From a virus (Duplodnaviria > Caudoviricetes), in IMG/VR virus record IMGVR_UViG_3300045973_001145, positions 1 through 56,859 of that record: a stretch of DNA of 56,859 nt. One strand, given 5' to 3'. Below the pieces are notes generated by a model that saw nothing but the letters and a program-made list of their open reading frames with translations, was not told the DNA's origin and did not search any database. Below, in pieces: positions 2,547-56,603 of this stretch. How positions within the stretch are numbered: position 1 is the first letter of the stretch; every line of letters begins with the position of its first letter. The translations under genes were made by a program, and so were the position numbers.

Positions 2547-3293
2547 ATGATTACATTAAAAATTTTACAAAATAAAGTAGAACAAAGAATATCAGATTAT
2601 ATAGAATTTGATGTTAAAGAGTTATTTAGAGTATCGGATTATATTACAATTTATGGTGGTGCTGTTCGAGATAGTATTGCAGGTCTTGAAATACATGATA
2701 TTGATATTTTGTGTATGCCAGATTCTGCACAAAAATTAAGAATTTTTTTAAATGGTAAAGGATATACAACTTTAGATTTATATGATGTAGATTCACTTCA
2801 TATGTATAAAGGTATTTCATTAATATCGGAACCTTGGACACTTATGAATAAAGATAGAAAAATAATTCAAATTATACGTCCAAGATTTGGTGGACCAAAT
2901 AGAAATGGCACAACTTCTGAAATGGAATATCAATTCGCTTATTATAATCTAATAAAGAATGTTGATATTTCTTGCTGTGGAGTTTTTTTAGAAAATTTAG
3001 GAGATAATATTAAATTAAGAGAAGCTTGTGATAAAGCTATAGTTCAATGTTTATCAAAAACTTATATTATTAATGAATGGGCTAAATTGTATAATAGAAA
3101 TAGAACTGATTTTAGAGAATGGAAATTGACTGCGAGAGGATGGAAGCCTTTCACTGGCGAAATAAAAATAATAAGAAAATTGAAAATTATTAATTTAGAT
3201 TTTAAACCTGAATATAATTATAAAATTTGGACTGAAGAAGAATATCTTCATAGAGAAAAATATAGAAAAAATTATGATGATTTACCATTTTAA
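2547..3293 (+). CDS. CCA-adding/poly(A) polymerase-like nucleotidyltransferase
   Basis: YGGAVRDSIAG..HDIDI signature. Confidence 0.75.
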   Translation: MITLKILQNKVEQRISDYIEFDVKELFRVSDYITIYGGAVRDSIAGLEIHDIDILCMPDSAQKLRIFLNGKGYTTLDLYDVDSLHMYKGISLISEPWTLMNKDRKIIQIIRPRFGGPNRNGTTSEMEYQFAYYNLIKNVDISCCGVFLENLGDNIKLREACDKAIVQCLSKTYIINEWAKLYNRNRTDFREWKLTARGWKPFTGEIKIIRKLKIINLDFKPEYNYKIWTEEEYLHREKYRKNYDDLPF

Positions 3294-3296
3294 AAA

Positions 3297-3794
3297 TTAA
3301 ACATTCATAGACTTAGGCAATCTATATCCAAAGACATTAACAAGTCTTGTGCTTTTTTTAGATTTTGACCAAAAATATGGAATTTCAACTGGTTTAAATT
3401 CACCGTTAAAATCTATATTTTTAATAGTTCCATTTTCGTAAATAACTTTTAACTTTCCTGATTTTGGTCTTTTTTTTAGATTAAATCGCCATTGTGTTTG
3501 TTGATCAAGAATAGCTGTTAAAATAAATATTTTTAATTTAGACTCAATGGAATAATTTCCATTACGATTACAATAACCTTTATGAAGTCCATGTAAATCT
3601 CCATATTCTACTTCATCAATAGTTGTTATAAATTCTACATCTTTATCAAATATTTGATATTGAGAATTATTTGGTCCATATATGACCATGTGCTTTATTT
3701 TTGTTCCCTTATAATTTTCATTAATTTTTCCACACGACCACACATTTGTTCCTATATGGACTTTTTTTAATGACGATTTAATTTTTGTTTCCAT
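3297..3794 (-). CDS. Hypothetical protein
   Basis: ORF track. Confidence 0.7.
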   Translation of the reverse strand: METKIKSSLKKVHIGTNVWSCGKINENYKGTKIKHMVIYGPNNSQYQIFDKDVEFITTIDEVEYGDLHGLHKGYCNRNGNYSIESKLKIFILTAILDQQTQWRFNLKKRPKSGKLKVIYENGTIKNIDFNGEFKPVEIPYFWSKSKKSTRLVNVFGYRLPKSMNV

Positions 3795-4242
3795 ATATTA
3801 AGATTTCAAGTTCATACATTAATTTATAAACGTTAACAACTCTGTTGTAACGGGTTGGTACAGGAACATTGTCAATTTTAGTTCCAGCACATAAAATTTT
3901 TCTCAAAAGAATACAATCTTCAGTACAAGACCATTCTATAAGTTCAAATTCTTGATCTTTTAGTTTCTCCCGTATTTTAGCTAACATTTGATCTTTTATA
4001 GGTATCACTTCTTTTTTCATTTCTCTAAATGTTGTGTTGTATTCGTTTTTTACTTTTTTTGGATTTTTACCACTCAACAAAGCTTCTGTCATAGGTACAG
4101 TTATGAAATATGGCAAATCTTCACCTGTATCATCTGAATAAAACCATACTACAAGTCCAGAACTTGTCACTTTTGGCATTATTACAATATTATCATTGTA
4201 TAATTGTCCTAACCATTGTTTTGCTAATTCGATAATTTCCAT
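3778..4242 (-). CDS. Hypothetical protein
   Basis: ORF track. Confidence 0.7.
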   Translation of the reverse strand: MEIIELAKQWLGQLYNDNIVIMPKVTSSGLVVWFYSDDTGEDLPYFITVPMTEALLSGKNPKKVKNEYNTTFREMKKEVIPIKDQMLAKIREKLKDQEFELIEWSCTEDCILLRKILCAGTKIDNVPVPTRYNRVVNVYKLMYELEILIYGNKN

Positions 4243-4502
4243 TATTTTATAGTAATTTTAGTTTTTTCGTGATATTGCTGAGCATCATATCCGGCTATTC
4301 CATTATTTTGGTCAAAATTTGCATCATTTAAATAATAGAATTTACCTTCTGAATTTTGACATTTAACAATATGTCTTGAACCATAATTCCAAATAACATA
4401 TTCACCTTTTGGAAGTCGTTCAACAAGTCCTAAATCGTTTGGATCTTTAGGACCAGCACAACTAATTAAGACAATAATGAGTAAAAATAAAATATATTTC
4501 AT
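4242..4502 (-). CDS. Putative lipoprotein
   Basis: MKY + hydrophobic stretch + LISC lipobox. Confidence 0.6.
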   Translation of the reverse strand: MKYILFLLIIVLISCAGPKDPNDLGLVERLPKGEYVIWNYGSRHIVKCQNSEGKFYYLNDANFDQNNGIAGYDAQQYHEKTKITIK

Positions 4503-4515
4503 AATTAAAATTTAT

Positions 4516-5073
4516 CTAATAACCAATTTTGTTTGCCCATAAACTCCATTCTTCAATCTCTTTTTTTCTAGCCTCTTCAAATTTATTGTTTATTTTTTTA
4601 AAGCCATTTTTATTTCTAACTATATACAGAATTTCAAGGTTCTGACGAAGTTCTTTTAATTTTTCTTTATCAGTATCACTATTAAGTATTTCAATTTCTT
4701 GAGTTAGAATACTTATATTTTCTGAAAAAAATATTTCTTTTTTAGAAGAGTCTAAGTCTTTTATTTTATCTTCAACTTCACTTATTTTTTTGATTTTTAT
4801 TTCTTCTTTATTTACAATATTTGTTTTATTTTCTTTTTCTCTATTGAATAACAATTGCTCTTTTTTTGATAATCCAATTTGCTCTTTTATACTTGTTGTA
4901 TGCCATCCACCACAAAAAAGACAATAGTAACTTCTTTTAGGACTATAACCAGATACCGATTCTATTTCTTCATTGTTGAACTTCATAAAAATTTCTGCTT
5001 TCTTTTCTGTATCAAAAAGCATTTTTATTCTATCGCAATTATTGCAAAATACCTTATTTTTAGTAGGTTTCAT
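4516..5073 (-). CDS. Zn-ribbon-containing hypothetical protein
   Basis: CNNC and YYCLFCGGWH motifs. Confidence 0.6.
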   Translation of the reverse strand: MKPTKNKVFCNNCDRIKMLFDTEKKAEIFMKFNNEEIESVSGYSPKRSYYCLFCGGWHTTSIKEQIGLSKKEQLLFNREKENKTNIVNKEEIKIKKISEVEDKIKDLDSSKKEIFFSENISILTQEIEILNSDTDKEKLKELRQNLEILYIVRNKNGFKKINNKFEEARKKEIEEWSLWANKIGY

Positions 5074-5075
5074 GT

Positions 5076-5309
5076 TTATTTATCTTCAACTTTTGTAACT
5101 ATTGTACACCATTCTGCAACATAAGACCGTTCTTCATCATTTTCTAATCTTACATAGACTTTGTTATTATCCATAACGCCATAACCAATAACTTCAGCTA
5201 ATGTATCTTTATCTTCTTTTTTAAAGTTGAAAAAATCCAATTTTACGGTGTCGCCAATTCTTAATCCATAATAGCGTCTGCGTTCTGCATTATTAAATGT
5301 CTTCTCCAT
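5076..5309 (-). CDS. Hypothetical protein
   Basis: ORF track. Confidence 0.6.
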   Translation of the reverse strand: MEKTFNNAERRRYYGLRIGDTVKLDFFNFKKEDKDTLAEVIGYGVMDNNKVYVRLENDEERSYVAEWCTIVTKVEDK

Positions 5310-5311
5310 AA

Positions 5312-5950
5312 TTAAAATTTATAATTTTTTGTTGGTTTACGACTTTTCAATTGCCATAGAGTATTATTTTTTTCAGCTAAACCTCTATCTAATTTAGCAA
5401 CAGCTTTTTTCAAAACAAATCCTTCGAGCATATCAACTTCGGTAATTTTTTTCCATAGCTCTGAAAAATTTTCATAGAATGTTTTAACTCTATAAATATC
5501 ATCTGTTATTTTATAGAGATAGTCATTTTCACTTTCAGTACCTAATAAAGTGTCAAGAAGTGCAATTCTTTCTTCCATTGTTGTACCAATGAGGTAATCA
5601 CCATTATATACAAGGATGTCAAAAATTACAAATTTATGATTCCAAGGTTTGCCATCAATACCGTTTTTGTTCTTGTTCATATATTCTCCAACAATAACAT
5701 TCCAGCCATCATTACCAAAATTAAGAATTTTAAGTTCAGGTAATTTTAATTTGAAATTTGAAAGATTTTCATTTTGATGCCTACCAAAGTATCTTAATTC
5801 ATCACCTTTGATGTAAATTTCACAGCAAGAACCATTGAGTTTTGGTTGCCCGATATGAGTGCCTTCATATTTACAAAGTTGTTCTGGAGAGATAACATAC
5901 TCTGGCCGAGGTGGAAACATATACCTAAACGACTCATACTTTACTGACAT
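5312..5950 (-). CDS. Minimal ATP-dependent DNA/RNA ligase-family nucleotidyltransferase (start revised to MSVKYESF)
   Basis: QPKLNG (motif I), GEYM, FVIFDIL, EGFVLK, WQLK motifs; no OB domain. Confidence 0.75.
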   Translation of the reverse strand: MSVKYESFRYMFPPRPEYVISPEQLCKYEGTHIGQPKLNGSCCEIYIKGDELRYFGRHQNENLSNFKLKLPELKILNFGNDGWNVIVGEYMNKNKNGIDGKPWNHKFVIFDILVYNGDYLIGTTMEERIALLDTLLGTESENDYLYKITDDIYRVKTFYENFSELWKKITEVDMLEGFVLKKAVAKLDRGLAEKNNTLWQLKSRKPTKNYKF

Positions 5951-6022: not shown

Positions 6023-6511
6023 ATGAAATATTTAAAGACTTTTGAAAATAGCTATGAAAGAACAATAGTTTATGAATATGTTTCTGAGCAAAATCGTATT
6101 AAGATTGAAAATTTTGTTCGGGAGTATATGAATAAAGATGAATTTTTTAAAAAAGTTAATCGCTTAAATAAGACTCATTTTGAAAACGATAATTATATTT
6201 ATAGAGATATTTTTAATACAATATTATCTGCAAATAAATATATATATTGGGAGATTGATAGATTTTGTTTGATTAATGATATAAATGAAAGTGCACCAGC
6301 TATTAGAAATACTTTAGTCGGTGTTTTACAAGAAATATATAAAGAATATTACTCTGAATTTAAACAAAAATTAGATGATAAATTAGTATCAATATTTGAA
6401 AAAAATCCAGATGAATATAAATCAAAATATCGTCTTATTTCTCAAAAACTTAACTCAGATGTTAAAAAAAGATGTGAATGGATGTTAATGACCGATAAAT
6501 ATAATTTATAA
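6023..6511 (+). CDS. Putative head-internal protein (MKYLKTFE...DKYNL)
   Basis: Terminal motifs shared with 22627..23106 and 54207..54497. Confidence 0.6.
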   Translation: MKYLKTFENSYERTIVYEYVSEQNRIKIENFVREYMNKDEFFKKVNRLNKTHFENDNYIYRDIFNTILSANKYIYWEIDRFCLINDINESAPAIRNTLVGVLQEIYKEYYSEFKQKLDDKLVSIFEKNPDEYKSKYRLISQKLNSDVKKRCEWMLMTDKYNL

Positions 6512-6515
6512 AGCT

Positions 6516-6776
6516 ATGAAAAATATTAAAAATGTTAGATTGTTTAAGGAAAGCCTTAGTTATTGTGATAGTTGTCATATGTTATCTGATACAAGAATGT
6601 GCAACTTTTGTCAAATTTTAGATATACTTGGTATAACTAAAGAAGAAGATGCTGATAATATTTATGGAAAATTGAAATATTATAAAAATTTCAAAGATAA
6701 AAATTATGCGATAGATTTTATTGATACTCTTAAAATATCAGATGAACAAAAAGAAAAAATAATAGAATTGTTATGA
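6516..6776 (+). CDS. Small CxxC-CxxC protein
   Basis: CDSC...CNFC. Confidence 0.6.
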   Translation: MKNIKNVRLFKESLSYCDSCHMLSDTRMCNFCQILDILGITKEEDADNIYGKLKYYKNFKDKNYAIDFIDTLKISDEQKEKIIELL

Positions 6777-7132
6777 AAAAATATGAAGAATTCAAGAAAA
6801 TGAATGAACTATTAGCAACTACTCCAGTAGATTTGAAGTATGTTGATAGAGAAACTAGTGATAAAGAAATTTTAAGATTAGCTATAATTGGAGAATTGGA
6901 CGCAGTTAGTTTATATGAGCAATTAGCAGAAACAGCAAAGGATGATAAAGTTAAAACCACTTTATTGAAAATTGCTAAAGAAGAAAAAACTCATGTTGGT
7001 GAGCTTCAACAATTATTAAAAGAATTAGATCCTGAATATAAGAAAGAGTTAAAAAAAGGAAAAGAGGAAGTTAAGAAAGATGAAGAAGATGATGATAAAG
7101 ATGATAAAGATAATGCAATTCAAAAAACTTAA
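6773..7132 (+). CDS. Ferritin-like/rubrerythrin-family protein
   Basis: LRLAIIGELDAVSLYEQLA...IAKEEKTHVGEL di-iron ExxH pattern. Confidence 0.85.
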   Translation: MKKYEEFKKMNELLATTPVDLKYVDRETSDKEILRLAIIGELDAVSLYEQLAETAKDDKVKTTLLKIAKEEKTHVGELQQLLKELDPEYKKELKKGKEEVKKDEEDDDKDDKDNAIQKT

Positions 7133-8273: not shown

Positions 8274-8525
8274 CTACTTTTGATATAACCTCAACATTTC
8301 TAATTTATTTTTTCTTAAAAATTTTGTTGGTATAGGGAACCATGGCGAAATTGTAGGAGGCATAGTTTTACAAGTTGTACAATGAGCTTGAAAATAATTA
8401 TCATCAATTTCTATTTCATTTACAATAATACAGTTGTACTTGATATACATATCTTTCAATGATTTTTCAATTATACTTGTATTTTTTGATAGATAATCTT
8501 TTAATTTTAATTCCAGATCAGTCAT
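8274..8525 (-). CDS. Hypothetical protein with RKxKL tail
   Basis: Ends FLRKNKLEMLRLYQK. Confidence 0.6.
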   Translation of the reverse strand: MTDLELKLKDYLSKNTSIIEKSLKDMYIKYNCIIVNEIEIDDNYFQAHCTTCKTMPPTISPWFPIPTKFLRKNKLEMLRLYQK

Positions 8526-15351: not shown

Positions 15352-15621
15352 TTAATTATTAATGGCGTTTAACTTCTGTAATTTATATTTTCTTTTAACT
15401 AATTCTAATTTAGCTAATGTGTCTGGGTTTTCAGGATCTAAAACTGTATAAAGTTTACCTACACCAACATCATCAATATTTGCAAATTCATAACCATGAT
15501 ATATCTGTAGCACATCTTTCGCAGGATTATACAAAATTTTATTCATTACAATATCAGTTCTACCAATATTGTAAATTCTATAAAAAAATAAACCACGTTG
15601 CAATATATCTCCTTCTTTCAT
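15352..15621 (-). CDS. Hypothetical protein with RKxKL tail
   Basis: Ends KRKYKLQKLNAINN. Confidence 0.65.
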   Translation of the reverse strand: MKEGDILQRGLFFYRIYNIGRTDIVMNKILYNPAKDVLQIYHGYEFANIDDVGVGKLYTVLDPENPDTLAKLELVKRKYKLQKLNAINN

Positions 15622-15935
15622 TTTGAATCTTCGATATTAAAAAATAAATAATCTAATTTTTCTATTAAATGTTTAGCATCAATATTATCAACACAATCAT
15701 ATATAATTTCACCTCTTTCAGTTGTCTTGAATCTTTTTGCTAATAAATCCTTTGTAATTGAAATGCAAAATAACTGAAAATATTTCAAATCTTCTTCTTC
15801 TTTACATTCTGGTGTTACATTCCAATCAAATCCAATAAATCTTGTTTTTGGTAAGCCATTAATATTATTAAGCTTCATTTTTCTGGTGGTCTTAATATCA
15901 TGAGGTTCATTAATTCTTTTTACATTTATATTCAT
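15618..15935 (-). CDS. Hypothetical protein, tandem paralog of 15932..16261
   Basis: Shared IGFxW...DL..FxLFCxSIxKDL...FxTxERG. Confidence 0.7.
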   Translation of the reverse strand: MNINVKRINEPHDIKTTRKMKLNNINGLPKTRFIGFDWNVTPECKEEEDLKYFQLFCISITKDLLAKRFKTTERGEIIYDCVDNIDAKHLIEKLDYLFFNIEDSK

Positions 15936-17924: not shown

Positions 17925-18142
17925 TCTGGAATTATTAAGTCCAAATTAAGTTCTTTAATATTAAATATCAAAGATTCTTTATCACAACAATATTTAATAA
18001 CATCATAACCAGGAATACAAAAAATAACATAACCTTTACAAATCATATATCCAATATATAATTTTCCTTCATATGGATATGTTATTTCTTGAATAAAATA
18101 ACCTGTATTTAAATTAAAAAATTTATTAATAATTTTCATCAC
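17921..18142 (-). CDS. Hypothetical protein
   Basis: ORF track. Confidence 0.55.
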   Translation of the reverse strand: MMKIINKFFNLNTGYFIQEITYPYEGKLYIGYMICKGYVIFCIPGYDVIKYCCDKESLIFNIKELNLDLIIPE

Positions 18143-18581
18143 TATCTAAACTTATGAAATTTAATTCACTAATTTTAAGCATTCTAATCATAAGAGTAGC
18201 ATCTTTATATTTTTTCTGATTATTATTACATCTATAACCACTAAAGCCAGAGTTACTATCCTTTTCAGTATAATAATCTGCACTATCGCAAGTAACTTTG
18301 AATTTTTTACCTTGATAATCAGAAGGATTAGCACGAGGATTTATATTATCCATAGGTGCAGAAAAAACGCAATTTCTATACATAATGAAATTGTGAAGTT
18401 TAAACTTACATTGCCAGACAATACTAAGTTCGTCGTCACGTTCTTCACATTTATGTAGCAATTCTAACATTTCTTTAACTTTGTCGTCAGATAGAATAAT
18501 TAGTTCAAAGCCTTTTTCGGATTGACCAATCATTTTAATAACATTTTTGTCTTTTTGGTAGAATTTAAGAAATCTTTTCAT
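18126..18581 (-). CDS. Hypothetical protein with RxxK[LI] tail
   Basis: IRMLKISELN near the C-terminus; -7 box at 18607-18614. Confidence 0.65.
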   Translation of the reverse strand: MKRFLKFYQKDKNVIKMIGQSEKGFELIILSDDKVKEMLELLHKCEERDDELSIVWQCKFKLHNFIMYRNCVFSAPMDNINPRANPSDYQGKKFKVTCDSADYYTEKDSNSGFSGYRCNNNQKKYKDATLMIRMLKISELNFISLDSDENY

Positions 18582-19877: not shown

Positions 19878-20501
19878 TTAAATATTTTCATCTTCATTAA
19901 ATGAAGCTTTTAATCTATTTAGTTTGTATTTTCTTAATGCAACCTTTACTTCGTATTGCTCAAAAAAATGTTGTTCAAAATCTTTTTTAACTCCTGTTAA
20001 TTCGCAATATATAACATCACCATTTTTATCAACAATTTGATATAATTCGTTTTTTTTATAATGTATTTTACCTTTGATAATTACCTCTTTATAAAGTTTA
20101 TCTTTGCCTGTTTGTTCATATAGTGGTGAAACAGGAATAAAAAAAACACCTGCAAAAAAATTCATATTATTTGGATAAAATTTTCCATTAATAACATTAC
20201 CATATTCAAATGTTATAAGAAAAAGTTTATCATTAATAACTTTTTTGTATGCTGAAAAGAAAATTTCAAAATTTGGTTGATAATTGTATGTACAAAATAC
20301 AATAGCATCATCATTGATATCATAAAATTTTAAATATTTAAGCTCAAATCCAAAGTCATCAAATTTTTGTAAAAGTTCACTATATTTAATTGGTGAAAAT
20401 TTTTCTTTTGAATTTTTTGAAATTAAAAAGTTATAATCAAAATCTACTGAACCTGGATTATATGAATTTTTAAAATTAATATGTATTACATCATGATACA
20501 T
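19878..20501 (-). CDS. Hypothetical protein with RKxKL tail
   Basis: LRKYKLNRLK near the C-terminus. Confidence 0.65.
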   Translation of the reverse strand: MYHDVIHINFKNSYNPGSVDFDYNFLISKNSKEKFSPIKYSELLQKFDDFGFELKYLKFYDINDDAIVFCTYNYQPNFEIFFSAYKKVINDKLFLITFEYGNVINGKFYPNNMNFFAGVFFIPVSPLYEQTGKDKLYKEVIIKGKIHYKKNELYQIVDKNGDVIYCELTGVKKDFEQHFFEQYEVKVALRKYKLNRLKASFNEDENI

Positions 20502-21716: not shown

Positions 21717-22218
21717 AATTTTCTTTGAAAATTTTGTTTAATTCTTTAATTTTTAATTTTTTATCATTTCTCTCTTTTTCTTCTTTTTCTTCTTTCAATC
21801 TATTTTTTTCATCTAATTTATTATAAATTGATTCCAAATCAGTTGATAATTCAGTTATTTTTTTTGATTCACATAGAAAATATGTACCAACTTCATAAAA
21901 TCTATAAAATAATAGCGTAATTGGATATGGAATTAACAAAAATAACCATATCTTAGCAGTTAAATTTTCATCATACATTAAAGTCCATTTACCAACATAA
22001 TAATCACTACTATATTGTTTTTGATACATTTTAAAAATTGGATCAACTTTGGTGAAATATTTTTTTAATTTTGGAAGTTTAATTGATATGCTAATTTTAT
22101 CATAAACAGTTGTCAAATATAAAAATAAATTTACTACTGCGCTAAATATCATCCAACAAAATAATGTTCCGCAATAAGAGATTACATACACTACAAGATT
22201 TCCAAAAAATTCTTTCAT
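21709..22218 (-). CDS. Membrane protein
   Basis: Two hydrophobic segments; KKLKIKELN tail. Confidence 0.65.
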   Translation of the reverse strand: MKEFFGNLVVYVISYCGTLFCWMIFSAVVNLFLYLTTVYDKISISIKLPKLKKYFTKVDPIFKMYQKQYSSDYYVGKWTLMYDENLTAKIWLFLLIPYPITLLFYRFYEVGTYFLCESKKITELSTDLESIYNKLDEKNRLKEEKEEKERNDKKLKIKELNKIFKENYE

Positions 22219-23106: not shown

Positions 23107-23214
23107 TTTATAGAATTTATTTTTAATATATATTAAAAAATAAAGATGAGTTTTATATTTTAATAAAAATCCATATTTTTTATTTAATATATAGAATAAA
23201 AATAAAAATAGCAT

Positions 23215-29172: not shown

Positions 29173-29386
29173 ATTATTTTCACATAAAATAGATAAACTG
29201 GTAATTACTCAGGTTGTCACTACTCAAGTAAATAATAATGTGAATAAAAATGGTAGAATTTATACTAAAGAAGCATTAGTTAATGCGTATGATAAATTTT
29301 TAAAAGCCATAGTACGGCAAGAGAGAAAAGAAAAAATAGAAAAAATAAATGCAAAAACAGCACTTCATATTCAAGATAAAGAATGA
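29165..29386 (+). CDS. Short protein with gp21 prohead-protease N-terminal motif and RKxKI tail
   Basis: VNKNGRIYTKEALVNA followed by ERKEKIEKIN. Confidence 0.55.
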   Translation: MDRLFSHKIDKLVITQVVTTQVNNNVNKNGRIYTKEALVNAYDKFLKAIVRQERKEKIEKINAKTALHIQDKE

Positions 29387-29693
29387 ATATTTACCTCAAT
29401 TTATAAATGATAATATTAAATCTGGTATTATAGATTATACTATTAATTGGTTGGGTATATTTAATGTTGATCAAAAATATTTTAGAAAAATTAAAATTGA
29501 ATCTATTGAAAAAAGAATATCTAATACTGATAAACAATTATTAGAATATTTGACTGATGATAAATATACACTTCTAATTTCACAAGAAGATGTAGATTTA
29601 AAAGTTAGAAATTCATCTTCAGGTGGTTGTCCAACAGGAGTGCAAGGTCAGCAAGGTGTAACAGGTAAAAAATTTAATGCTGGTTTGTTATAA
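29349..29693 (+). CDS. Hypothetical protein (RKIKIESI; short Gxx tail)
   Basis: ORF track. Confidence 0.6.
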   Translation: MQKQHFIFKIKNEYLPQFINDNIKSGIIDYTINWLGIFNVDQKYFRKIKIESIEKRISNTDKQLLEYLTDDKYTLLISQEDVDLKVRNSSSGGCPTGVQGQQGVTGKKFNAGLL

Positions 29694-29722
29694 AAAAGAG
29701 TGATTAATTATCACTCTTTTTT
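29692..29722. terminator. Bidirectional intrinsic terminator
   Basis: AAAAAAGAGTGA-ttaatta-TCACTCTTTTTT between convergent genes. Confidence 0.8.
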
Positions 29723-29988
29723 ATTCTTTCTAATTTAACTTTTCTCCAGTATTTTATTGGATCTTTATTATAAATTTGAGTTAATTTTGATGATGTTAAA
29801 TCTTCTGGTATTTTTTCAACTCTTGTATATTCACCTGGTATAATTCTTACTATAAATCCAATTTTTCTAAGCATATTAATATAATTATCTGATGTGCTTC
29901 CATCTAATAAGTCTATTGAATTTAATTCTTTTCTTGTTATAAACTCATGTGAATTTACATAATCTTTAAGAGTTTCCCATTTGTTCAT
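29704..29988 (-). CDS. Winged-helix-like small protein with RKxKL tail
   Basis: NYINMLRKIGFIVRIIPGEY; ends WRKVKLERIKKSDN. Confidence 0.6.
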   Translation of the reverse strand: MNKWETLKDYVNSHEFITRKELNSIDLLDGSTSDNYINMLRKIGFIVRIIPGEYTRVEKIPEDLTSSKLTQIYNKDPIKYWRKVKLERIKKSDN

Positions 29989-40290: not shown

Positions 40291-40597
40291 TTATTTTTTT
40301 TAATTTTTCTTTTCTTAGATTAATCTCACCTATATATTTACAGCCTTGTGAACTCATATGTTTTTCATAATCTTCTTCAAACCAACTCCAATCAAATCCG
40401 TCTCCTTCAAACCATGATGACGATTTACTTTTTGTGCAAGATATATAAACATATTTTGGCTTTGGATTGTCATTTAAATATTCCATAAAATCTGAGCCTT
40501 CTTCTAAAAGAATGTGTATGTAATCAGGTCTTACTTTTAAGTATTCCATACATAATTTAATATCTGAGTTATTCTTTATTTTCCAAAAATTTGACAT
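40277..40597 (-). CDS. Hypothetical protein with RKEKLKKIN tail
   Basis: ORF track. Confidence 0.65.
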   Translation of the reverse strand: MSNFWKIKNNSDIKLCMEYLKVRPDYIHILLEEGSDFMEYLNDNPKPKYVYISCTKSKSSSWFEGDGFDWSWFEEDYEKHMSSQGCKYIGEINLRKEKLKKINELR

Positions 40598-40796
40598 TAT
40601 TTAGTTTTTTCAATTTTTCTTTTCTAATTTCTTTGATAGTTGAAAATCTTTCTTTATAAAAACCATATCTACGATTATTATCATCTATTATACGATAGAA
40701 ATTACTTTCGTTAGTAAGTAGTGGTAATGTTTCATATATTTTACCAATTGTTAATCTAGTATTATTCTCACTATTATCAATGCATATTATTTTCAT
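40569..40796 (-). CDS. Small SH3-like protein with RKEKLKKLN tail
   Basis: IICIDN...LTIGKIYE...IIDD...RF. Confidence 0.6.
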   Translation of the reverse strand: MKIICIDNSENNTRLTIGKIYETLPLLTNESNFYRIIDDNNRRYGFYKERFSTIKEIRKEKLKKLNNVKFLENKE

Positions 40797-41664
40797 TTAG
40801 TTTTTTTAATTTTTCTTTCCTAATTTCTTTATTAGGATCATAATTAAGTTTTGCATTTAAAATAAAATCTGTGTCAAAATTATATAGTTTTATATTGTGA
40901 GATTTTATATAATCATCAATTTCAGTATTACCTTCTTCTGATAATCGGTGAGATATATTCCATGTAGATTCTATTGTTTCTTTTGATTCTTTAGCAATTA
41001 ATCTTCTTTTAGCTATTGATCTTATTCTTTGTTCATCTGATGGAATATTTTCTAAAATTTTGGTTATTAGTTCATCACCACGAAAAAGTCGATTTAATCC
41101 GTTCCAATAATGTGTTGGATCAAATAATAAAATTTTCATATTGAAACCTTGGATTTCATTAAATTTATTCCAATCTTTTTCACGTTGTTTCCATTGTTGT
41201 CTTGGTACATCTTTATCTGGATCACTACTATTTTGACAATACCAATCTTCTAAAAATTCTAATAGAATTTTTTTATGCTCTTGTACAAGAATATTTGGAT
41301 AAACTAAAATTTTTCGATTAGAAATAGCTTCTAAGGATATATTTAAATGTACAGTAAAGTCATTTCTTTGAGATGATTCAGCTAAAATTTTTGAAGCTTG
41401 AAAAATATACGATAATACAGTTATTTCGTCTGTTATTATTTCACTTATTTTTTTCTGTATTTCTGAATCTCCATGAGAATCGTAGCCAATATTTTTAACA
41501 CAATCCATTCCGCCATCAAAGTGATCAACAAAAAGTTCTGCATATTTTTTTGCTAATTCATTTTTTGATGCCTCTTTGAATCTATCTAATCTTTTTACAA
41601 TTTCATCTTGAATGTATTTGATGCTTTTTCTAGACATCATTCCATCATATGCTGCTAAACTCAT
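40777..41664 (-). CDS. Hypothetical protein with RKEKLKKLN tail
   Basis: ORF track. Confidence 0.75.
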   Translation of the reverse strand: MSLAAYDGMMSRKSIKYIQDEIVKRLDRFKEASKNELAKKYAELFVDHFDGGMDCVKNIGYDSHGDSEIQKKISEIITDEITVLSYIFQASKILAESSQRNDFTVHLNISLEAISNRKILVYPNILVQEHKKILLEFLEDWYCQNSSDPDKDVPRQQWKQREKDWNKFNEIQGFNMKILLFDPTHYWNGLNRLFRGDELITKILENIPSDEQRIRSIAKRRLIAKESKETIESTWNISHRLSEEGNTEIDDYIKSHNIKLYNFDTDFILNAKLNYDPNKEIRKEKLKKLNENNMH

Positions 41665-42498: not shown

Positions 42499-42702
42499 CT
42501 AATTATTTTTGGATATTTCATTCAATTTCTTTAATCTTTTATTTCTTATGAATGAAGTTATTTCATTTTCATTTAATACTTTAACATCTGACCAACAATT
42601 TTCACACATGAAGATATTTTCTAATTCATAACAACTTTTATATAATTTGTTACATTCTTCACAATAATAAATACATTTTTCTGAAGTTTTAAATGATGAC
42701 AT
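42499..42702 (-). CDS. Zn-ribbon protein with basic tail
   Basis: CEEC..CENC; IRNKRLKKLN. Confidence 0.6.
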   Translation of the reverse strand: MSSFKTSEKCIYYCEECNKLYKSCYELENIFMCENCWSDVKVLNENEITSFIRNKRLKKLNEISKNN

Positions 42703-42901
42703 TTTTAAGATGTTCTAATTTTTTTTTTCTTTCTTTCTTTAAAAAAGCACTATTCAATAATCTTGCAACTTTTGGGCTTACAATTAAAAATTCTTTATCT
42801 GAATCTTGTTTTCTACCTCGTAATGCTGAATTATCGTCTTGATATTCATCTACATATACTGTAATATTGTTTTCACTATAAACAAATTCAACGCCCATCA
42901 T
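42689..42901 (-). CDS. Hypothetical protein with RKxKL tail
   Basis: ERKKKLEHLK. Confidence 0.55.
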   Translation of the reverse strand: MMGVEFVYSENNITVYVDEYQDDNSALRGRKQDSDKEFLIVSPKVARLLNSAFLKKERKKKLEHLKNVII

Positions 42902-44425: not shown

Positions 44426-44657
44426 TTAATACTTTTAATTTTTGTTTTCTATGATAATTATTTATTTGTTTTTCTACTTGTTCTGTTGTATAAAGGTCAC
44501 TTTGAAAAATAGAAGGATATTTATGAATATTTGATGTATTTTTATTAATACAAAATCTAGGTCCATCTGATGTCATATATCCTGTAATATCCCAGTTTTT
44601 AGGTATTCTATAATTCAGATTAAAATGTAATGTGCTAAATATTCCAAATATTTCCAT
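44382..44657 (-). CDS. Hypothetical protein with RKxKL tail
   Basis: HRKQKLKVLN. Confidence 0.6.
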   Translation of the reverse strand: MEIFGIFSTLHFNLNYRIPKNWDITGYMTSDGPRFCINKNTSNIHKYPSIFQSDLYTTEQVEKQINNYHRKQKLKVLNGTSKTNYSLEKGS

Positions 44658-50200: not shown

Positions 50201-50474
50201 CATTATCTTGATGTTCTGTTTTTAAACCAACAAAACTAACATCAATTGAATAAGGTCCGCCAATTTTTAAATTTGGTAAATTGTAACGTCCATCATCACG
50301 TGTTGTAGTTCCATACTTTGTACCACTTGGAATGTGAGTTGCAATTACAGTAACATAAGGTAATGCTCCTTCAGTACCAGAAATAACACCCTGAATTTCA
50401 GATGTCGTTTCTTGTGCGTACATAAATAAACTACTAAACGTAAGTAAAAAAAGAAAAATTAATTTTTTAATCAT
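47208..50474 (-). CDS. Oar-like TonB-dependent outer-membrane receptor
   Basis: Signal peptide, carboxypeptidase-regulatory domain, plug (VDGANFNNSFGL, PISLEAIEQIQV, NTVTKSGTN), SPRLGFNW, C-terminal WQMMFGIKYLFN. Confidence 0.92.
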   Translation of the reverse strand: MIKKLIFLFLLTFSSLFMYAQETTSEIQGVISGTEGALPYVTVIATHIPSGTKYGTTTRDDGRYNLPNLKIGGPYSIDVSFVGLKTEHQDNVMLYLGQTFKANFVMKVESTEVGEVVVTAVNDKSFSSSRTGSQELITRTQVDRLPTINRSIQDFVKLEPTSNGLNIGGRSNQYNNMTVDGANFNNSFGLSSILGGQTGAQPISLEAIEQIQVNVSPYDVKQGGFAGTGVNTVTKSGTNKFIGSIYQYSRNQNYLGYEVGPTTVTKTPFDYSIKGFSLGGPIIKDKLFFFVSGEQSKQNAPATSMQASDASHAAGGNYSQANADTLKVLSSFLKTKYGYDPGSFQGYSFQTNSDKITAKLDWNINSKNTFTLKYNYLKSSSDQYASTSRPGTGQTTGGQPGTYSMPFFGSGYVINNNFNILIAELNTHFNNSLSNKLQIGYTALRDFRSPHSSSATMPLVDILNNGNIYTSFGYEMYTYNNKLNTDVYQLNDILTYYKGSHELTVGTQNSIKKYQNAFAPGYEGVYQFNSLTDFYNSAKNGTANAKSYYLQYSALPGGAFPWANAGSTELSQFIQDKWKVTNDFTLTAGLRLDETLYKQAMTDNPDFDALKFKDGSTYNIGKAPMNNVIISPRLGFNWNPFGDKTLQVRGGSGIFAGPPPFVWISNQASNNGIQFGSFTKSKIAFNSDPTTYLPTAGAPNSSYSTALVSSNFKYPTAWKSSIAIDKKLEAGWLIGAEYNYTQDINAVYYSNINLNESNGFALGGVDNRMRYLTTANTNKYYSGTPTATLTNPNIGNAILMSNSSQGYTYTLTGKVQRTTENLSYGVAYTRSVSKNTAEGGSTASSLWSAAPVANQDPNSVNLGYASYYQPNRVIANFAYKLNEGENLSTSVGAIYELANNGVNSYTYNGDLNGDGNSGNDLMYIPKTITDINLVKVGSGGLGTGTSTDTRTSAQIWSQLDAFISNSTYLNTHRGQYAKRNAAVAPYYSKLDLNITQDLKIKVGNSTNTLRFSLDMINAGNFINRDWGVVRIPTATNIIKYEGLSADGKTPSFSLPFQTGTTPFTQPYQNSTSISSRWQMMFGIKYLFN

Positions 50475-50589: not shown

Positions 50590-51792
50590 TTAAATATCAT
50601 TGAGAATCTTAATTGCTTTATTTGCAGCATTTACCCATGAGAATTCGGTTCTTATTAATTCTGAATCTTTAAGTGCGATTTCTTTATATTTCCAATAATT
50701 GGTATAAACATCTCTCATTATTTTTGATAAATCATCAAAATCTGGCTGATAATAATTCCCAACAAATCCTGGTATAGCCTTTTCTCCTAAAATTTTAACT
50801 GGATGCCCTTTACCTTTTGCATATTCTAATTGGGCACTACAATTAGAATATATTGATGGTGTACCACAAGCCATAGCTTCTATTAATGGAAGATTAAACC
50901 CCTCTGATCTTGAACAAGATAAGAAAACATGACCATTTCTTAAATAATTAATATAATCTTGTCTTGCTAAGAAATGAAGAACTTTTAATCTATCATCTTT
51001 AAAATTAAAATGATTTAATCTTTCTTCGGTAGTTTTCATACCATCAACTGCATAATCAGCATTATCCACAGCTAATATAAGATCAACAGGCTCATTTTTA
51101 TTAAATGTTTTAAGGAATGTTTGAATAATTTCAGTTGTTGATTTTCTATATTCCCATCTACCAAAGAGTATAAATTTGAATTTATTATCTTTATACATAT
51201 TTAAATTATAATTAAAATAATCTGGATTAAATATATTACCATCAACAGCTTCAGGTATAACAAAAACTTTATTTGCAGGATAACCTTGATTTATAATACA
51301 TTGTTTTTGCCATTCAGATGGACACCAAAATTGATCAAATTTTTTAAGTATTTCGAAAAAATTATTATCGTATAATGTTGATTCCCAAACATTGTAAGCA
51401 ATTTTGAAACCTTTATATTTTTCCATTTGATGAAAATATGGATGATCTGTTTCACTAAGAATAATATCAATAATATTTTCTTGACTATATTTTTTAAGAT
51501 ATTCATTACCATCATTAATTTCATAATCACAAATTCCTGTATCACAATATAATGTTTGTTCACATAATAATGATCTCTGATAATCAGTTATATACAATTC
51601 GTGTTTATGTGGATCATTATAACGACCATAGATGTTTTTTGGTCCTAAGCCAATCCAACTTTTTCCTATTGTAAAATTTCTAAGTTTTAAATCTATTTTT
51701 TGACTTAATGCTGTGAAAAAATCTCTTGCGTGAGCGTTATAGCCAGTTTGCCCAATAAAGCTTGTGTGACCTTTTACGAAATAATTATTCAT
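50590..51792 (-). CDS. Glycosyltransferase family 4 (GT-B)
   Basis: GRWEYRK, SRSEGFNLPLIEAMACGTP. Confidence 0.88.
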   Translation of the reverse strand: MNNYFVKGHTSFIGQTGYNAHARDFFTALSQKIDLKLRNFTIGKSWIGLGPKNIYGRYNDPHKHELYITDYQRSLLCEQTLYCDTGICDYEINDGNEYLKKYSQENIIDIILSETDHPYFHQMEKYKGFKIAYNVWESTLYDNNFFEILKKFDQFWCPSEWQKQCIINQGYPANKVFVIPEAVDGNIFNPDYFNYNLNMYKDNKFKFILFGRWEYRKSTTEIIQTFLKTFNKNEPVDLILAVDNADYAVDGMKTTEERLNHFNFKDDRLKVLHFLARQDYINYLRNGHVFLSCSRSEGFNLPLIEAMACGTPSIYSNCSAQLEYAKGKGHPVKILGEKAIPGFVGNYYQPDFDDLSKIMRDVYTNYWKYKEIALKDSELIRTEFSWVNAANKAIKILNDI

Positions 51793-52618
51793 TTCTTATG
51801 CTATTTAATTTTTTAAGTTTTTCTTTTCTATAATAAGAGATGCTTCTCGAATTTAATGTGAGATATTGAGAATATGCACTACCAACAGATGCAATACAGT
51901 AATACATTATAATATGATTTCCTTGTGGTGTTTTTATTTCATCAAATTTAATAAATCCATCAGTATCTGTTAATATTAAACAATGTGTACCTATATTTTC
52001 CATATTATTTTTTCTACCCATTAAAATTAATCCATCATCTATGGAATTGTTAATATTATAAGCTATTGTTCCAAGTTGTAAGATTCCATTACCATCATAA
52101 ACATGTTGAATACCAATTAAATAATTAAGAATATATTTATATGTTTTTGAGTTTGATATCATAAAATTTGCTGGACCTATTCTACCATTAACAGCGATAA
52201 AACTACCAGCAGATATAAATTTTGATAATAGTTTTCTTGATGTTAATACTGAATCATCAGTTTTAAAGTATTTTATATTTATATCTAATCTATTATTATC
52301 TAAATTTTCATTTCTATTTTGTTCACCTAATTTAGATATTTCTTCAATAAAATTTTTTTGTATTCCTGAATTTATAAATTTAATATAGTTGCTATGATTA
52401 TCATCTAAATGATCTTGTGATTTAAATCCTAATCTAATATCAGTTTTAAATGTCTTAGTATAAACTTGAAGTCCTACTGTTGTTGAAAGTGATGATGTTT
52501 GAGCTGAAGGATTATTAATTCTATAATCCATATATGATACATCAATTATGCTATTGTTTACTGGTATTATTGTAAAAAAAGTATTGTTTAGTTCTTCAGG
52601 TTTAATATTAGGTATCAT
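51785..52618 (-). CDS. Degenerate T4 gp23-like major capsid protein paralog with RKEKLKKLN tail
   Basis: IIPV..SYMDY, GLQVYTK, RKLLSKFISAGSFIAVNGRIGPANFMISN, ILMGRK, SQYLTL in gp23 order. Confidence 0.65.
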   Translation of the reverse strand: MIPNIKPEELNNTFFTIIPVNNSIIDVSYMDYRINNPSAQTSSLSTTVGLQVYTKTFKTDIRLGFKSQDHLDDNHSNYIKFINSGIQKNFIEEISKLGEQNRNENLDNNRLDINIKYFKTDDSVLTSRKLLSKFISAGSFIAVNGRIGPANFMISNSKTYKYILNYLIGIQHVYDGNGILQLGTIAYNINNSIDDGLILMGRKNNMENIGTHCLILTDTDGFIKFDEIKTPQGNHIIMYYCIASVGSAYSQYLTLNSRSISYYRKEKLKKLNSIRNE

Positions 52619-53585: not shown

Positions 53586-53625
53586 TCATTTTTGTTTTTT
53601 AATATATAAAAGAAAAAGTACCTTA

Positions 53626-54210
53626 ATGGAAAAATTTACACAAATAGAAGATAAGCCAATTGTACCAGAAGATGAAGTATTATTTAACGGAAATCATATA
53701 GACATGATTAAGTATAAAGATACTGAAATTATGCAAATTGGTGATAAAGTTGCGATACTACCATATTTTAGAGATGAAGCAACATTCTTAATGAGATTAG
53801 AATATACCCCAGCATATCAATATAAAAATCGTGATAAGTCAAATTTGAAAAGAATAACAAATTATTTGACTGTTATTACAGAAGCAATGGAGCAAGGTGA
53901 AACACCTGAGCAAACAATTAGAAGAGGATTATACGAAGAAGGTGGAATAGTTCTAAATAATTTATATCCATTTGAAGTAGAAGGTCCTTTTTTTGTTGAT
54001 AAATTTAGTACAGGACAAATGTATATTTGCTTGTTAGAATTACCTGTAAATTCATTTCGTCAAATTAAACCACCAACAGATGGCTCAAAAAATGAAAAAT
54101 TATCAAAAAATATTATAATTTCAATTGGTGATGTTAATCAAATTGTTAATAATGACTTACTTACTAAATATTTAATTAGTAAATTAATACAAAGAATAGC
54201 AAATACATGA
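53626..54210 (+). CDS. NUDIX hydrolase-like protein
   Basis: EQGETPEQTIRRGLYEEGGI (degenerate Nudix box). Confidence 0.7.
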   Translation: MEKFTQIEDKPIVPEDEVLFNGNHIDMIKYKDTEIMQIGDKVAILPYFRDEATFLMRLEYTPAYQYKNRDKSNLKRITNYLTVITEAMEQGETPEQTIRRGLYEEGGIVLNNLYPFEVEGPFFVDKFSTGQMYICLLELPVNSFRQIKPPTDGSKNEKLSKNIIISIGDVNQIVNNDLLTKYLISKLIQRIANT

Positions 54211-54497
54211 GATATTTAAAAACATTTGAATTATATAATACATCAACAGGAAATTATGTTGATTATAAAGAAGGTGATATTGTTGTTTGTGACGAACCAA
54301 CATCTAATCTTTTTTTAGTAAAAGATAAAAAATATAAGGTTTTAAGAATTTATACTTCAATAGAATATAAAATGATGGGTAAACCTTATTTAATAGTAGA
54401 TGTAGAAGATGTTGAAACTGGTGAAATATCAAAAGGTTGGGAATCAACTAGATTTCACGCAATTGTTGAATTTGATGTGGATAAATATAATTTTTAA
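54207..54497 (+). CDS. Putative head-internal SH3-like protein (MRYLKTFE...DKYNF)
   Basis: Shared terminal motifs. Confidence 0.6.
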   Translation: MRYLKTFELYNTSTGNYVDYKEGDIVVCDEPTSNLFLVKDKKYKVLRIYTSIEYKMMGKPYLIVDVEDVETGEISKGWESTRFHAIVEFDVDKYNF

Positions 54498-54952: not shown

Positions 54953-55138
54953 ATGAAATATTTAAAAACATTTGAAGAAATAACGCCAGTTGAATATGTT
55001 GCGCCACAAGTAGATCATCCATCATATAAAGCTGAGGAAAAAAAGAAAAAAAGAAAAAAAAGTGGTATTGGAATGGAGCCTCTTATGGTTCTACCTAATA
55101 AAACTAAAGATGCAATATCTTTCAAAGCTAAACCTTAA
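54953..55138 (+). CDS. Small basic late protein (MKYLKTFEE)
   Basis: TTAATATATA at 54939-54948; KKKKRKK patch. Confidence 0.6.
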   Translation: MKYLKTFEEITPVEYVAPQVDHPSYKAEEKKKKRKKSGIGMEPLMVLPNKTKDAISFKAKP

Positions 55139-55143
55139 ACAAT

Positions 55144-55518
55144 ATGAAAAACCTTTGGTTAAAATTTAAACGTAGTGATTTTTATAGAACATATAAAGAA
55201 GAAATGATAGTTGTTCCAGCTATATTAATAATCTTTTTTTTATTTAATAGTTTTTTAGTTTATATGTTTCCAAATAGTGCTTTTTTTGATTATTATAGTG
55301 AAATTGAAACATTATTATCTAAAATAGTAGTATTCTTAGTTGCAGTATGGACCGCACGTTTAGCATTAAGAGTATCATTTCCTAAAATGTATAAATTTAT
55401 GCATCAAGAAATATATCATAAATTTGATTCATTACCAATGGATAAAAAAATGCAATATTCTATTATCTATTTGGTTACTTTTATAATTGCAGCAGCATTA
55501 ATATTTAGTAAAATGTAA
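55144..55518 (+). CDS. Putative holin (3 TM)
   Basis: Three hydrophobic segments directly before the endolysin. Confidence 0.5.
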   Translation: MKNLWLKFKRSDFYRTYKEEMIVVPAILIIFFLFNSFLVYMFPNSAFFDYYSEIETLLSKIVVFLVAVWTARLALRVSFPKMYKFMHQEIYHKFDSLPMDKKMQYSIIYLVTFIIAAALIFSKM

Positions 55519-55532
55519 AAAAAATTGTTTAA

Positions 55533-56060
55533 ATGAAATATAGAATTGTATTTACTTTTATATTTATGCTCATATTTGGAGTATTAGACTCTGAAAATTT
55601 AGAGCTACGTAATAAATTGATAGTATCTATTGAATCTCAACTAAATGTTCGTGAAACGACACCAAATAGAGGTCCTATGGTTGATAAATATCTTAAAGAA
55701 GTAGGTGCTGATTATGGTAATCCTTGGTGTGGAGCATTTGTTGGTTATAATTTAACTGCATATAAAATAAAAAACCCTAATAGTGCATGGTCACCAAATT
55801 ATGCTAAGCCAATTGATATTATATGGAAAGCAAAACGAAAAAATAATAAAACACCATTAGCTGGAGATGTTGTAACTTATTATTATCCAAATCTTGGTAG
55901 AGTTGGTCATGTTGGATTTTTTGTAAAATTAGATAAAGATGGATATTTTATCACAATTGAAGGCAATACAAATGGTAGTGGTGGTCGTGAAGGTGATGGT
56001 GTTTATAAAAAGAAAAGAGATCCAGATAAAGTATTTGCTGTTTCTAGATATATAAAATAA
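55533..56060 (+). CDS. CHAP-domain endolysin with N-terminal signal/SAR
   Basis: NPWCGAFV, GHVGF, TIEGNT. Confidence 0.85.
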   Translation: MKYRIVFTFIFMLIFGVLDSENLELRNKLIVSIESQLNVRETTPNRGPMVDKYLKEVGADYGNPWCGAFVGYNLTAYKIKNPNSAWSPNYAKPIDIIWKAKRKNNKTPLAGDVVTYYYPNLGRVGHVGFFVKLDKDGYFITIEGNTNGSGGREGDGVYKKKRDPDKVFAVSRYIK

Positions 56061-56061
56061 T

Positions 56062-56319
56062 TTAATTTATTTTGGAAAGTTGTTCTAATTTTATTTTTCG
56101 TTCTTCTCTTATATCATAAAAATAATTGTAAAAATAATATTCATTTTCACCAATAAAATCCTCTATAAAATCTTTTGATGTATTTAACCTAAATCTATAA
56201 GGATAATCATTTTGTATTGTTATAAAATCATTTTGTTCAAACACAGAAGCAATAGAAATGACTTCATAATATTTACCTTTTTTAAATTTTTGACAATTAT
56301 TTTTACAATATACTTTCAT
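56062..56319 (-). CDS. Small SH3-like protein with RKxKL tail
   Basis: VYCK...KGKYYEV; ERKIKLEQLS. Confidence 0.6.
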   Translation of the reverse strand: MKVYCKNNCQKFKKGKYYEVISIASVFEQNDFITIQNDYPYRFRLNTSKDFIEDFIGENEYYFYNYFYDIREERKIKLEQLSKIN

Positions 56320-56345
56320 GAAAATATATATTAAAAAAAGTGGTA

Positions 56346-56603
56346 CTATTTTAAAGTTTTATTGATTTTTATTAGTTTTTCTTTTCTCAAAAATGTAGTA
56401 ATTCCATAAATTTTTTGAATATCTTGAGCAGTATAAAGATTAACGTCAACACTTTCATACTCTCCTGATTCTAATATGCAATCATATTTATTATTCCATC
56501 CAGATTTAACAATTAAAAGAGAAAAAGCATTTGTCATATCAACATATCTATATACTTCACCATTTTGTATTTTAGAAAAATTATATCTAGCTTTGAGTAT
56601 CAT
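56346..56603 (-). CDS. Hypothetical protein with RKEKLIKIN tail
   Basis: ORF track. Confidence 0.6.
   Translation of the reverse strand: MILKARYNFSKIQNGEVYRYVDMTNAFSLLIVKSGWNNKYDCILESGEYESVDVNLYTAQDIQKIYGITTFLRKEKLIKINKTLK

Follow-up and report, generated by a model that had tools for sequence, protein, structure and literature searches.

A short C-terminal peptide, here called the RK tail, is shared by many small proteins of the virus record IMGVR_UViG_3300045973_001145 from IMG/VR (Duplodnaviria; Caudoviricetes), and it is a real and conserved protein tag. The DNA analysed, referred to below as the window, is the entire 56,859-base contig of this genome. In its strict form the motif reads RKxK[LI]xx[LI]. 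Sixteen strict matches were found among the 112 predicted window proteins (17,607 amino acids, aa), 13 of which lie within the last 25 residues. A six-frame scan returned 17 strict matches, comprising 16 in long open frames and one orphan behind an RNA ligase gene, and three degenerate copies fit a looser pattern (Table 1). All 20 copies listed by the initial annotation are present in the sequence, including three internal ones and the cryptic one beyond the RNA ligase stop codon. The positions it gave were the low coordinates of the carrier genes, and those of the motifs themselves are found in Table 1. Genes were called as simple longest open reading frames (ORFs). A second gene-caller variant predicted 108 window genes and missed the carriers 29165-29386 and 40569-40796, which reduced the strict matches to 14, of which 11 are C-terminal.

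The motif occurs far above chance and is specific to the coding frame. Across 2000 whole-protein composition shuffles, the mean number of strict matches was 0.19 (maximum 3), with 0.025 (maximum 1) in the C-terminal 25 residues. Shuffles restricted to these 25 residues gave 0.06 strict matches, against the 13 observed. The five alternative frames of the window genes contained no strict match and one to four matches to the loose pattern per frame. A weight matrix built solely on 141 tails from two other contigs detected 11 window sites at ≥12 bits, the corresponding value for 200 shuffled proteomes being 0.05. No copy of the motif was present in a real ORF of two 41 kb stretches, similar in composition, from GenBank megaphages of 636 and 735 kb.

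The tail is also abundant in relatives of the window phage. At least one C-terminal copy was detected in 23 of 36 IMG/VR loci, and the copy-free loci were mostly short. Three relatives were available as larger, partial contigs (G001, G002 and G003, estimated by CheckV to be 46%, 70% and 36% complete, respectively). G001 encodes 71 carriers among 599 predicted proteins and G003 encodes 87 among 468, where about 0.1 would be expected. Copies were located within the last 30 residues in 71/78 cases in G001 and 87/91 in G003. A scan of the same two contigs with a DNA pattern yielded 83 and 99 matches, compared with 8 and 15 in the reversed control, and almost all of these were in-frame coding tails.

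Conservation of the tail acts on amino acids and not on DNA. Codon usage at the conserved R, K, L, I and N positions is that of the genome: AGA encodes 78-92% of tail Arg residues (genome 77%), AAA encodes 84-96% of Lys residues (genome 90%), and the Leu/Ile positions draw on seven different codons. Orthologues of the 207-aa protein 19878-20501 (six) and of the 94-aa protein 29704-29988 (five) have retained the conserved residues despite numerous synonymous substitutions. Of 93 homologues found for the 207-aa protein, 28 were aligned, with identities down to 41%; no more than 31 columns of this alignment are invariant, R190, K191, K193 and L194 being four of them, and the positions that follow are variable. 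Between families, tail DNA shares 61-65% identity, and identity of ≥90% was found in 3 of 6146 pairs, all three being neighbouring genes. Together, these observations point to purifying selection on the protein. Recent recombination, considered as the process that spread the tails, is ruled out by the low DNA identity between families.

The complete tail spans about 15 residues and follows the pattern cap, x-K-x-hydrophobic-R-K-x-K-L-x-K-[LI]-N, after which come three to six variable residues and the stop codon. Its extended profile consists of a cap (S, T or P) at -5, hydrophobic residues at -4 and -1, R0, K1, K3, L4, K6, L/I7, N/K8 and a hydrophobic residue at +10. On a helical wheel, positions -4, -1, R0, K3, L4, L7 and +10 would fall on one half and the free positions on the other. 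AlphaFold2 (AF2) predicts the tail to be helical in both proteins modelled, in agreement with the amphipathic helix proposed earlier. In the 207-aa protein, the body is modelled with a predicted local distance difference test (pLDDT) score of ~90, and the tail helix (residues 186-203) at ~50, without confident packing. The model of the 85-aa protein 56062-56319 (pLDDT 85) is a small beta-barrel with a C-terminal helix (residues 70-84) at pLDDT 86-89. The carriers are predicted to be soluble: among 169 carriers pooled from the window, G001 and G003, which also served for the junction counts below, none has a membrane-like stretch, compared with 66 of 383 other small ORFs. A profile of the SH3-like family with its tail, searched against the PDB, gave the C-terminal helix of H-Ras as best match, which was not significant (E 0.11). 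The F-Y-T...R-K-x-K-L-x-K-L-N end can be aligned one-to-one with this helix, the last one of H-Ras. We regard the match as coincidental, although it shows that a packed amphipathic helix is possible with a sequence of this kind.

The initial annotation described the carriers as otherwise unrelated. This holds in so far as clustering by body sequence divides the 179 strict carriers of four contigs into 105 groups, including 64 singletons, at least one carrier (the 207-aa protein) has a different fold, and among the window carriers the tail is the sole similarity detectable by BLASTP. It does not hold for the many carriers that belong to an expanded SH3-like family. In the relatives, the genes of many carriers, each 80-100 aa long, follow one another in tandem arrays at intervals of ~250 bp. 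Array genes overlap their neighbours by ~20 nt, and the tail and the next N-terminus are best conserved, with the middle highly diverged. Array proteins have in common an N-terminal G-D-K-L-L-C-K-K, a strand K-G-K-x-Y-x-I, and the end F-Y-T-K-x-E-x-R-K-x-K-L-x-K-L. A tail-free, body-only profile of this family reaches two of the 16 window carriers, 56062-56319 and 40569-40796. After six profile rounds, which had not converged, the superfamily included 53 of 123 loose-tail carriers, and 14 of the 16 window carriers remained outside it. Homology of the tail-free bodies therefore extends to part of the carriers only. In public data, the SH3-like family comprises 4593 representative clusters at E ≤1e-3, and the strict tail is found in 113 of the best 136 small matches.

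The tail behaves as an add-on module, and its earlier description as portable is borne out: it is present on different folds, some orthologues lack it, and so do proteins of other phages that share the fold. No tail is found on 11 of 14 long proteins built from repeats of the SH3-like body, and the BFVD matches to that body are weak and consist of 55-68-aa phage proteins. For the 207-aa model, a Foldseek search against the PDB found nothing at E ≤0.001, the top rows being chance matches with TM ~0.1.

The carriers form a lineage-specific, dispensable accessory repertoire. Searches of Pfam with 20 window carriers and motif-bearing proteins gave a single match above the cut-off, to DUF6501, and searches of PHROGs with 10 window carriers gave none. 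Nor did Pfam yield anything above the cut-off for 10 array proteins and 10 larger carriers of relatives. A protein atlas search returned viral clusters without names only, a related-locus scan with 51785-52618 returned nothing, and a homologue search with 40569-40796 recovered the query alone. Literature word searches, which matched words and not sequence and covered main texts without supplementary material, found no account of the motif. The suggestion that some carriers are capsid or protease fragments received no support from the Pfam and PHROGs searches, and that of a nucleotidyltransferase carrier comes down to a sub-threshold PolyA_pol match on 2547-3293, in which the motif is internal. 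The initial annotation was correct, though, that MetK, Pth2 and the TonB-type barrel lack the motif. In a Pfam scan covering 70 of the 112 window proteins, all proteins matched above the cut-off (these three, gp32, methylases, ligases and others) are tail-free, with the DUF6501 match as the exception.

We tentatively read the tail as a docking or addressing peptide for one common partner, which is possible rather than probable. This reading is preferred because a single helical face, displaying Arg and two Leu, lies at the free end of more than 100 families, is under selection, sits on soluble proteins, and is absent from housekeeping enzymes. The tail itself is a lineage-specific peptide module of ~15 residues, predicted to be helical. 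In one clade of ~700 kb megaphages it ends the members of a very large and rapidly evolving collection of accessory proteins, which are small and soluble. Its main carriers are SH3-like mini-proteins in tandem arrays, with the tail also carried by many other sequence families and at least one other fold. The conserved face (hydrophobic at -4 and -1, R0, K3, L4, L7 and hydrophobic at +10) would dock the carriers on the common partner, the constant tail serving as address or anchor and the variable body doing a specific job. Candidate partners are the capsid or scaffold interior, a hub enzyme or protease, and a host machine.

Several observations weigh against docking. No protein emerged as the common partner that the initial annotation had also proposed. 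A complex prediction pairing the SH3-like body (residues 1-66) with the last 43 residues of the 207-aa carrier scored 0.00 and 0.01, which speaks neither for nor against binding. In the SH3-like model, the tail helix may pack on its own barrel. About 40% of the loose-tail carriers are remote paralogues of one SH3-like family, in which the tail could be simply an inherited helix. Since the carriers have no family-based function, nothing ties them to one process. The spacing is narrow, with the motif ending 3-6 residues before the stop codon in 123 of the 169 carriers, and 81 of the 169 overlap the next gene by ≥8 nt, compared with 91 of 1000 other genes, which hints at some role, or origin, at gene junctions. 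Lastly, G002, a contig of 501 kb (locus L036) whose gp32 is 76% identical, has 10 carriers among 806 proteins, and 3 of the 169 carrier bodies have a homologue there, indicating that the tail system is dispensable for the core life cycle.

It is unlikely, although conceivable, that the C-terminal helix acts alone and, being basic and amphipathic, attaches directly to nucleic acid or an anionic membrane surface. The invariant R, K and K and the common K at +6 would suit such a role, as would the near-neutral to slightly acidic bodies (median -1.6 charges per 100 aa). The SH3-like bodies have weak matches to KOW and ribosomal SH3-like domains; Foldseek with the SH3-like model returned weak SH3, KOW and eS4 rows only. 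The non-significant H-Ras match points in the same direction, the C-terminal helix of H-Ras adjoining its membrane-binding region. However, the two Leu/Ile positions and the hydrophobic -1 match the basic residues in conservation and share a face with R0, which would suit a protein groove better than a phosphate backbone. Membrane insertion is disfavoured by the small width of the hydrophobic face and the frequent E or K at the x positions. Non-specific electrostatic binding, moreover, seldom keeps such exact spacing over more than 100 families.

We also consider it doubtful that the tail is a family signature without a shared partner, that is, the inherited capping helix of an ancient duplicated family, spread by cassette shuffling at the tail/start junction and largely a by-product. 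The tandem arrays, in which each 80-100-aa gene ends in a tail, fit this explanation, as do the size of the SH3-like family, the high share of strict tails among its best small matches, and a superfamily still growing after six rounds. The next ATG usually lies directly after the motif, a tail and junction persist as an orphan upstream of gene 38238-38687, and one orthologue of the 295-aa protein is tail-less. Such a signature does not account for the 207-aa family, which folds differently, is not closely followed by another start codon, and keeps R, K, K and L without exception in 28 homologues despite synonymous turnover. Tails of different families are dissimilar as DNA, so recent recombination is no explanation, and the SH3-like body fold exists without the helix, which means that the helix is not needed for folding.

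A signal in RNA or DNA, with the A-rich stretch acting as the initiation region of the next gene or as a recombination site and the peptide as a side effect, is highly improbable. The initial annotation had cautioned that in several cases tail DNA also forms the start region of an overlapping gene. This overlap is real and stronger than stated, with the next ATG located 23-37 nt after the R codon in 96 of the 169 carriers and frequently arising where the xAT codon at +8 of the motif is followed by a G. The overlapped starts include those of clearly genuine genes such as Pth2 and the Dam methylase. The usual spacing before 38238-38687, held by the orphan tail, and the nucleotide-level bias of the clade's other terminal motif, K[FY]N[IL]-stop, also favour such a signal. 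As the cause of the motif, however, the overlap fails. In 64 of the 169 carriers there is no start within 45 nt, and the residue profile and codon usage are unchanged. Offsets to the next ATG span 16-59 nt in two frames, and the fixed position relative to the next start codon that would characterise an RNA- or DNA-level junction element was not found. Because start-less carriers share the profile and the offsets are spread over two frames, the link to junctions is best seen as an added feature. The absence of strict matches from alternative frames, the DNA-pattern matches that are nearly all in-frame tails, and above all the genome-like codon usage with freely varying Leu/Ile codons largely refute this signal. 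A compositional artefact of an AT-rich genome rich in K, N, I and L, for which one could cite the G+C content of 23-29% and the loose matches in alternative frames, is refuted by the shuffles (16 versus 0.19 and 13 versus 0.06), the matrix test and the two copy-free megaphage stretches, and has practically no probability left.

The orphan tail lies between the RNA ligase stop codon and the next start. Its frame is offset by -1 from that of the ligase, the shift spanning seven consecutive A (38726-38732) just before the stop. RNA ligase orthologues in loci L038 and L002 have the same end point and no tail, and the orphan retains the usual tail-to-start spacing ahead of gene 38238-38687. It could be what is left of a carrier that was lost, or it could reflect a change in homopolymer length or a slippage event. 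Most of the short "orphan" motifs seen in relatives were alternative-frame matches inside other genes or carriers missed by the gene caller, and a relic-like appearance is confined to the window orphan and one truncated array copy.

Table 1. RK motif copies, proteins of a second terminal class and other features of the window, with gene arrays of relatives.
Feature	Position	Strand	Details
RKNKLEML, RK tail	8292..8315	-	83-aa protein 8274-8525; 5 residues before stop; 12.1 bits
RKYKLQKL, RK tail	15370..15393	-	89-aa protein 15352-15621; 5 residues before stop; next same-strand gene 168 nt downstream
RMLKISEL, degenerate tail	18162..18185	-	151-aa protein 18126-18581; loose pattern only
RKYKLNRL, RK tail	19911..19934	-	207-aa protein 19878-20501, distinct alpha/beta fold; no nearby downstream start
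KKLKIKEL, degenerate tail	21739..21762	-	169-aa protein 21709-22218; loose pattern only
RKEKIEKI, RK tail	29324..29347	+	73-aa protein 29165-29386; 12 residues before stop; 14.0 bits; tail kept in L014 and L026 orthologues
RKVKLERI, RK tail	29722..29745	-	94-aa protein 29704-29988; R, K, K, L kept in 4 orthologues despite synonymous changes
RKEKLKKI, RK tail	40292..40315	-	106-aa protein 40277-40597; Dam methylase ATG 25 nt past R codon
RKEKLKKL, RK tail	40602..40625	-	75-aa SH3-like protein 40569-40796; 37.7 bits; DUF6501 match, residues 12-53, E 3.6e-6; body-only profile E 1.3e-3
RKEKLKKL, RK tail	40798..40821	-	295-aa protein 40777-41664; L001 orthologue with tail; L002 orthologue ends ~20 residues sooner, without tail
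RNKRLKKL, degenerate tail	42523..42546	-	67-aa Cys-rich protein 42499-42702; loose pattern; Cys pairs in sequence
RKKKLEHL, RK tail	42707..42730	-	70-aa protein 42689-42901; 18.1 bits
RKQKLKVL, RK tail	44427..44450	-	91-aa protein 44382-44657; last 14 codons overlap Pth2 gene start
RKEKLKKL, RK tail	51806..51829	-	277-aa protein 51785-52618; C-terminal domain matches 98-aa G002 protein, also tail-bearing
RKIKLEQL, RK tail	56077..56100	-	85-aa SH3-like protein 56062-56319; body-only profile E 4.9e-4; L002 orthologue reads ERRKKLLKI at tail
RKEKLIKI, RK tail	56364..56387	-	85-aa protein 56346-56603; 18.3 bits
RKLKIINL, internal	3174..3197	+	248-aa protein 2547-3293; 31 residues before end
RKMKLNNI, internal, N-proximal	15861..15884	-	residue 18 of 105-aa protein 15618-15935
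RKIKIESI, internal	29484..29507	+	residue 46 of 114-aa protein 29349-29693; 13.6 bits
RKLKLEKI, orphan without start codon	38696..38719	-	between RNA ligase stop (38725) and next start (38687)
Tandem arrays of at least 10 SH3-like genes	G003 121-126 kb and 20-22 kb; G001 191-195 kb (L039-L042)		
Second-class protein	6023-6511	+	
Second-class protein	22627-23214	-	likely true start 23106
Second-class protein	54207-54497	+	
Second-class protein	54953-55138	+	N-terminal motif only
Response-regulator receiver domain	1943-2308	+	stand-alone
Second ligase-family protein	5312-5950	-	
Rubrerythrin/EncFtn-like protein	6773-7132	+	acidic tail
T4-type gp32 single-strand-binding protein	24615-25574		Pfam
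DNA methyltransferase	29966-30793		
DNA methyltransferase	33806-34549		
DNA methyltransferase	39472-40290		
Polynucleotide kinase-phosphatase	36572-37522	-	
RNA ligase (PF09414)	38725-39348	-	
TonB-dependent-receptor-like outer-membrane barrel	47208-50474	-	1088 aa; CarboxypepD_reg, Plug and barrel domains; adjoins GT4 glycosyltransferase

A second terminal signature was observed in the same clade. Proteins of this class open with M-K-[YH]-[LI]-K-x-[FY]-E, and their last residues are K-[FY]-N-[IL]. G001 has 104 of them among 599 proteins, G003 has 62 among 468, and the window has three or four. The two classes are mutually exclusive, with 0-1 proteins having both signatures, and occupy separate genomic islands. 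The N-terminal motif accompanies its own C-terminus in 75/104 and 47/62 proteins, and occurs in 1/71 and 2/87 proteins of the RK class (G001 and G003, respectively). The last codons of the second class are biased at the nucleotide level, with Asn encoded by AAC in 83 of 165 cases (genome 12%) and a last codon of xTA in 157 of 165; 4-nt ATGA overlaps are found at 88 of 165 junctions. In G002, ~45 proteins have KYNI in their last 15 residues, often with one further residue after it.

Both classes together make up ~30% of the predicted proteins of G001 and G003. They could form a two-address sorting system, with the RK class (~12-19% of proteins) and the second class (13-17%) each bringing a large and quickly diversifying repertoire of small effectors to its own destination, for instance the capsid interior for co-injection and an intracellular hub or compartment. 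We regard this extension as speculative and not likely. In position and flavour, the second signature recalls the targeting peptide of the T4 internal proteins. If true, the two-address system would resemble T4 targeting on the scale of about one third of a proteome.

The window is a piece of a megaphage genome of ~700 kb, of which it represents ~8%, as derived from the CheckV estimate (8% of the genome) and from the sizes of its relatives by gp32. The closest of these in GenBank are uncultured phages of 635-735 kb with 43-45% identity, and in IMG/VR, gp32 is found with 74-83% identity at 32 loci, the longest of whose contigs measures 501 kb. We rejected gp32 as a target of mimicry, its N-terminus having no RK-like motif. 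The window has a coding share of 92% under the standard code, uses all three stop codons, and contains no tRNA genes. Stop-codon recoding is ruled out by the use of all three stops, a coding density of 90-92% (table 11) and the lack of tRNA genes in the window. The TonB-type barrel suggests a host among the Bacteroidota. The kinase-phosphatase, the RNA ligase and the second ligase-family protein make up an RNA-repair-type set, and further window products include MetK, Pth2, a GT4 glycosyltransferase, NUDIX and CHAP proteins.

Most megaphage genes are without an assigned function. A single 15-residue signature that labels about one seventh of the proteins in some of these phages, with a second signature labelling about as many, provides a handle on hundreds of them. 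If the tail is an address, its receptor would reveal the destination of the repertoire (the virion, the replication site or a host machine), and the peptide would be a portable tag for loading foreign proteins. If it is instead a nucleic-acid-binding or structural helix, the carriers would be among the largest paralogue expansions seen in phages. Peptides and fusions make the claim testable before the phage is cultured, and G002, as a naturally tail-poor relative, lends itself to identifying genes whose occurrence follows the tail repertoire.

The tail can be compared with several known systems. C-terminal motifs of the clamp/PIP type and the MinD/FtsA helices are likewise C-terminal elements on unrelated proteins that bring them to one hub or surface. 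Clamp/PIP-type motifs have an aromatic or acidic consensus and occur on replication enzymes, whereas the ligases, kinase-phosphatase, methylases and gp32 of the window are tail-free, and the RK tail is not associated with replication or repair enzymes. The MinD/FtsA membrane-targeting helices have a broad hydrophobic face and little exact sequence conservation. The RK tail shares with them a predicted C-terminal amphipathic helix (residues 186-203 and 70-84 of the two AF2 models). Its hydrophobic positions are -4, -1, 4, 7 and 10, its x positions are often E or K, and its R and K are invariant.

A large paralogue expansion of a tiny domain in a giant phage has been reported for Bacillus phage G, in which one study describes ~35 Zn-ribbon copies as unprecedented and proposes a DNA-binding or regulatory role (PMC7824862). 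The expansion described here is similar in kind, but its constant element is a terminal peptide shared across families and folds, and it is several times larger per genome; the RK-tail carriers of G001 and of G003 exceed the ~35 copies of phage G. In encapsulin systems, a short C-terminal peptide is described as sufficient to load unrelated cargo into an HK97-fold shell (PMC11866011, PMC8346489). The RK tail is likewise a short C-terminal peptide on unrelated proteins, but it occurs on ~15% of the proteome, compared with one or few cargo types for each encapsulin, and its consensus differs. Encapsulin peptides are not known to be Lys/Arg-rich helices. No shell or capsid protein was identified in the sequences analysed.

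The nearest precedent is the capsid-targeting sequence (CTS) of T4, an N-terminal peptide that the prohead protease removes by cleavage behind a Glu. The RK tail sits at the opposite end of its proteins, the C-terminus, and has another sequence. Searches for T4-type gp23 (PF07068) and gp21 (PF03420) gave no match in the window and G001-G003 (8-70% complete), although they were silent in the controls as well. According to one report, the T-even internal proteins are highly diverse and the CTS, which addresses them to the capsid, is their sole shared element (PMC3012670). A handful of proteins bear the CTS in T4, compared with 71-87 carriers of the RK tail per contig, but in both cases a short terminal peptide is the only element common to diverse small phage proteins, and the window phage has a T4-type gp32.

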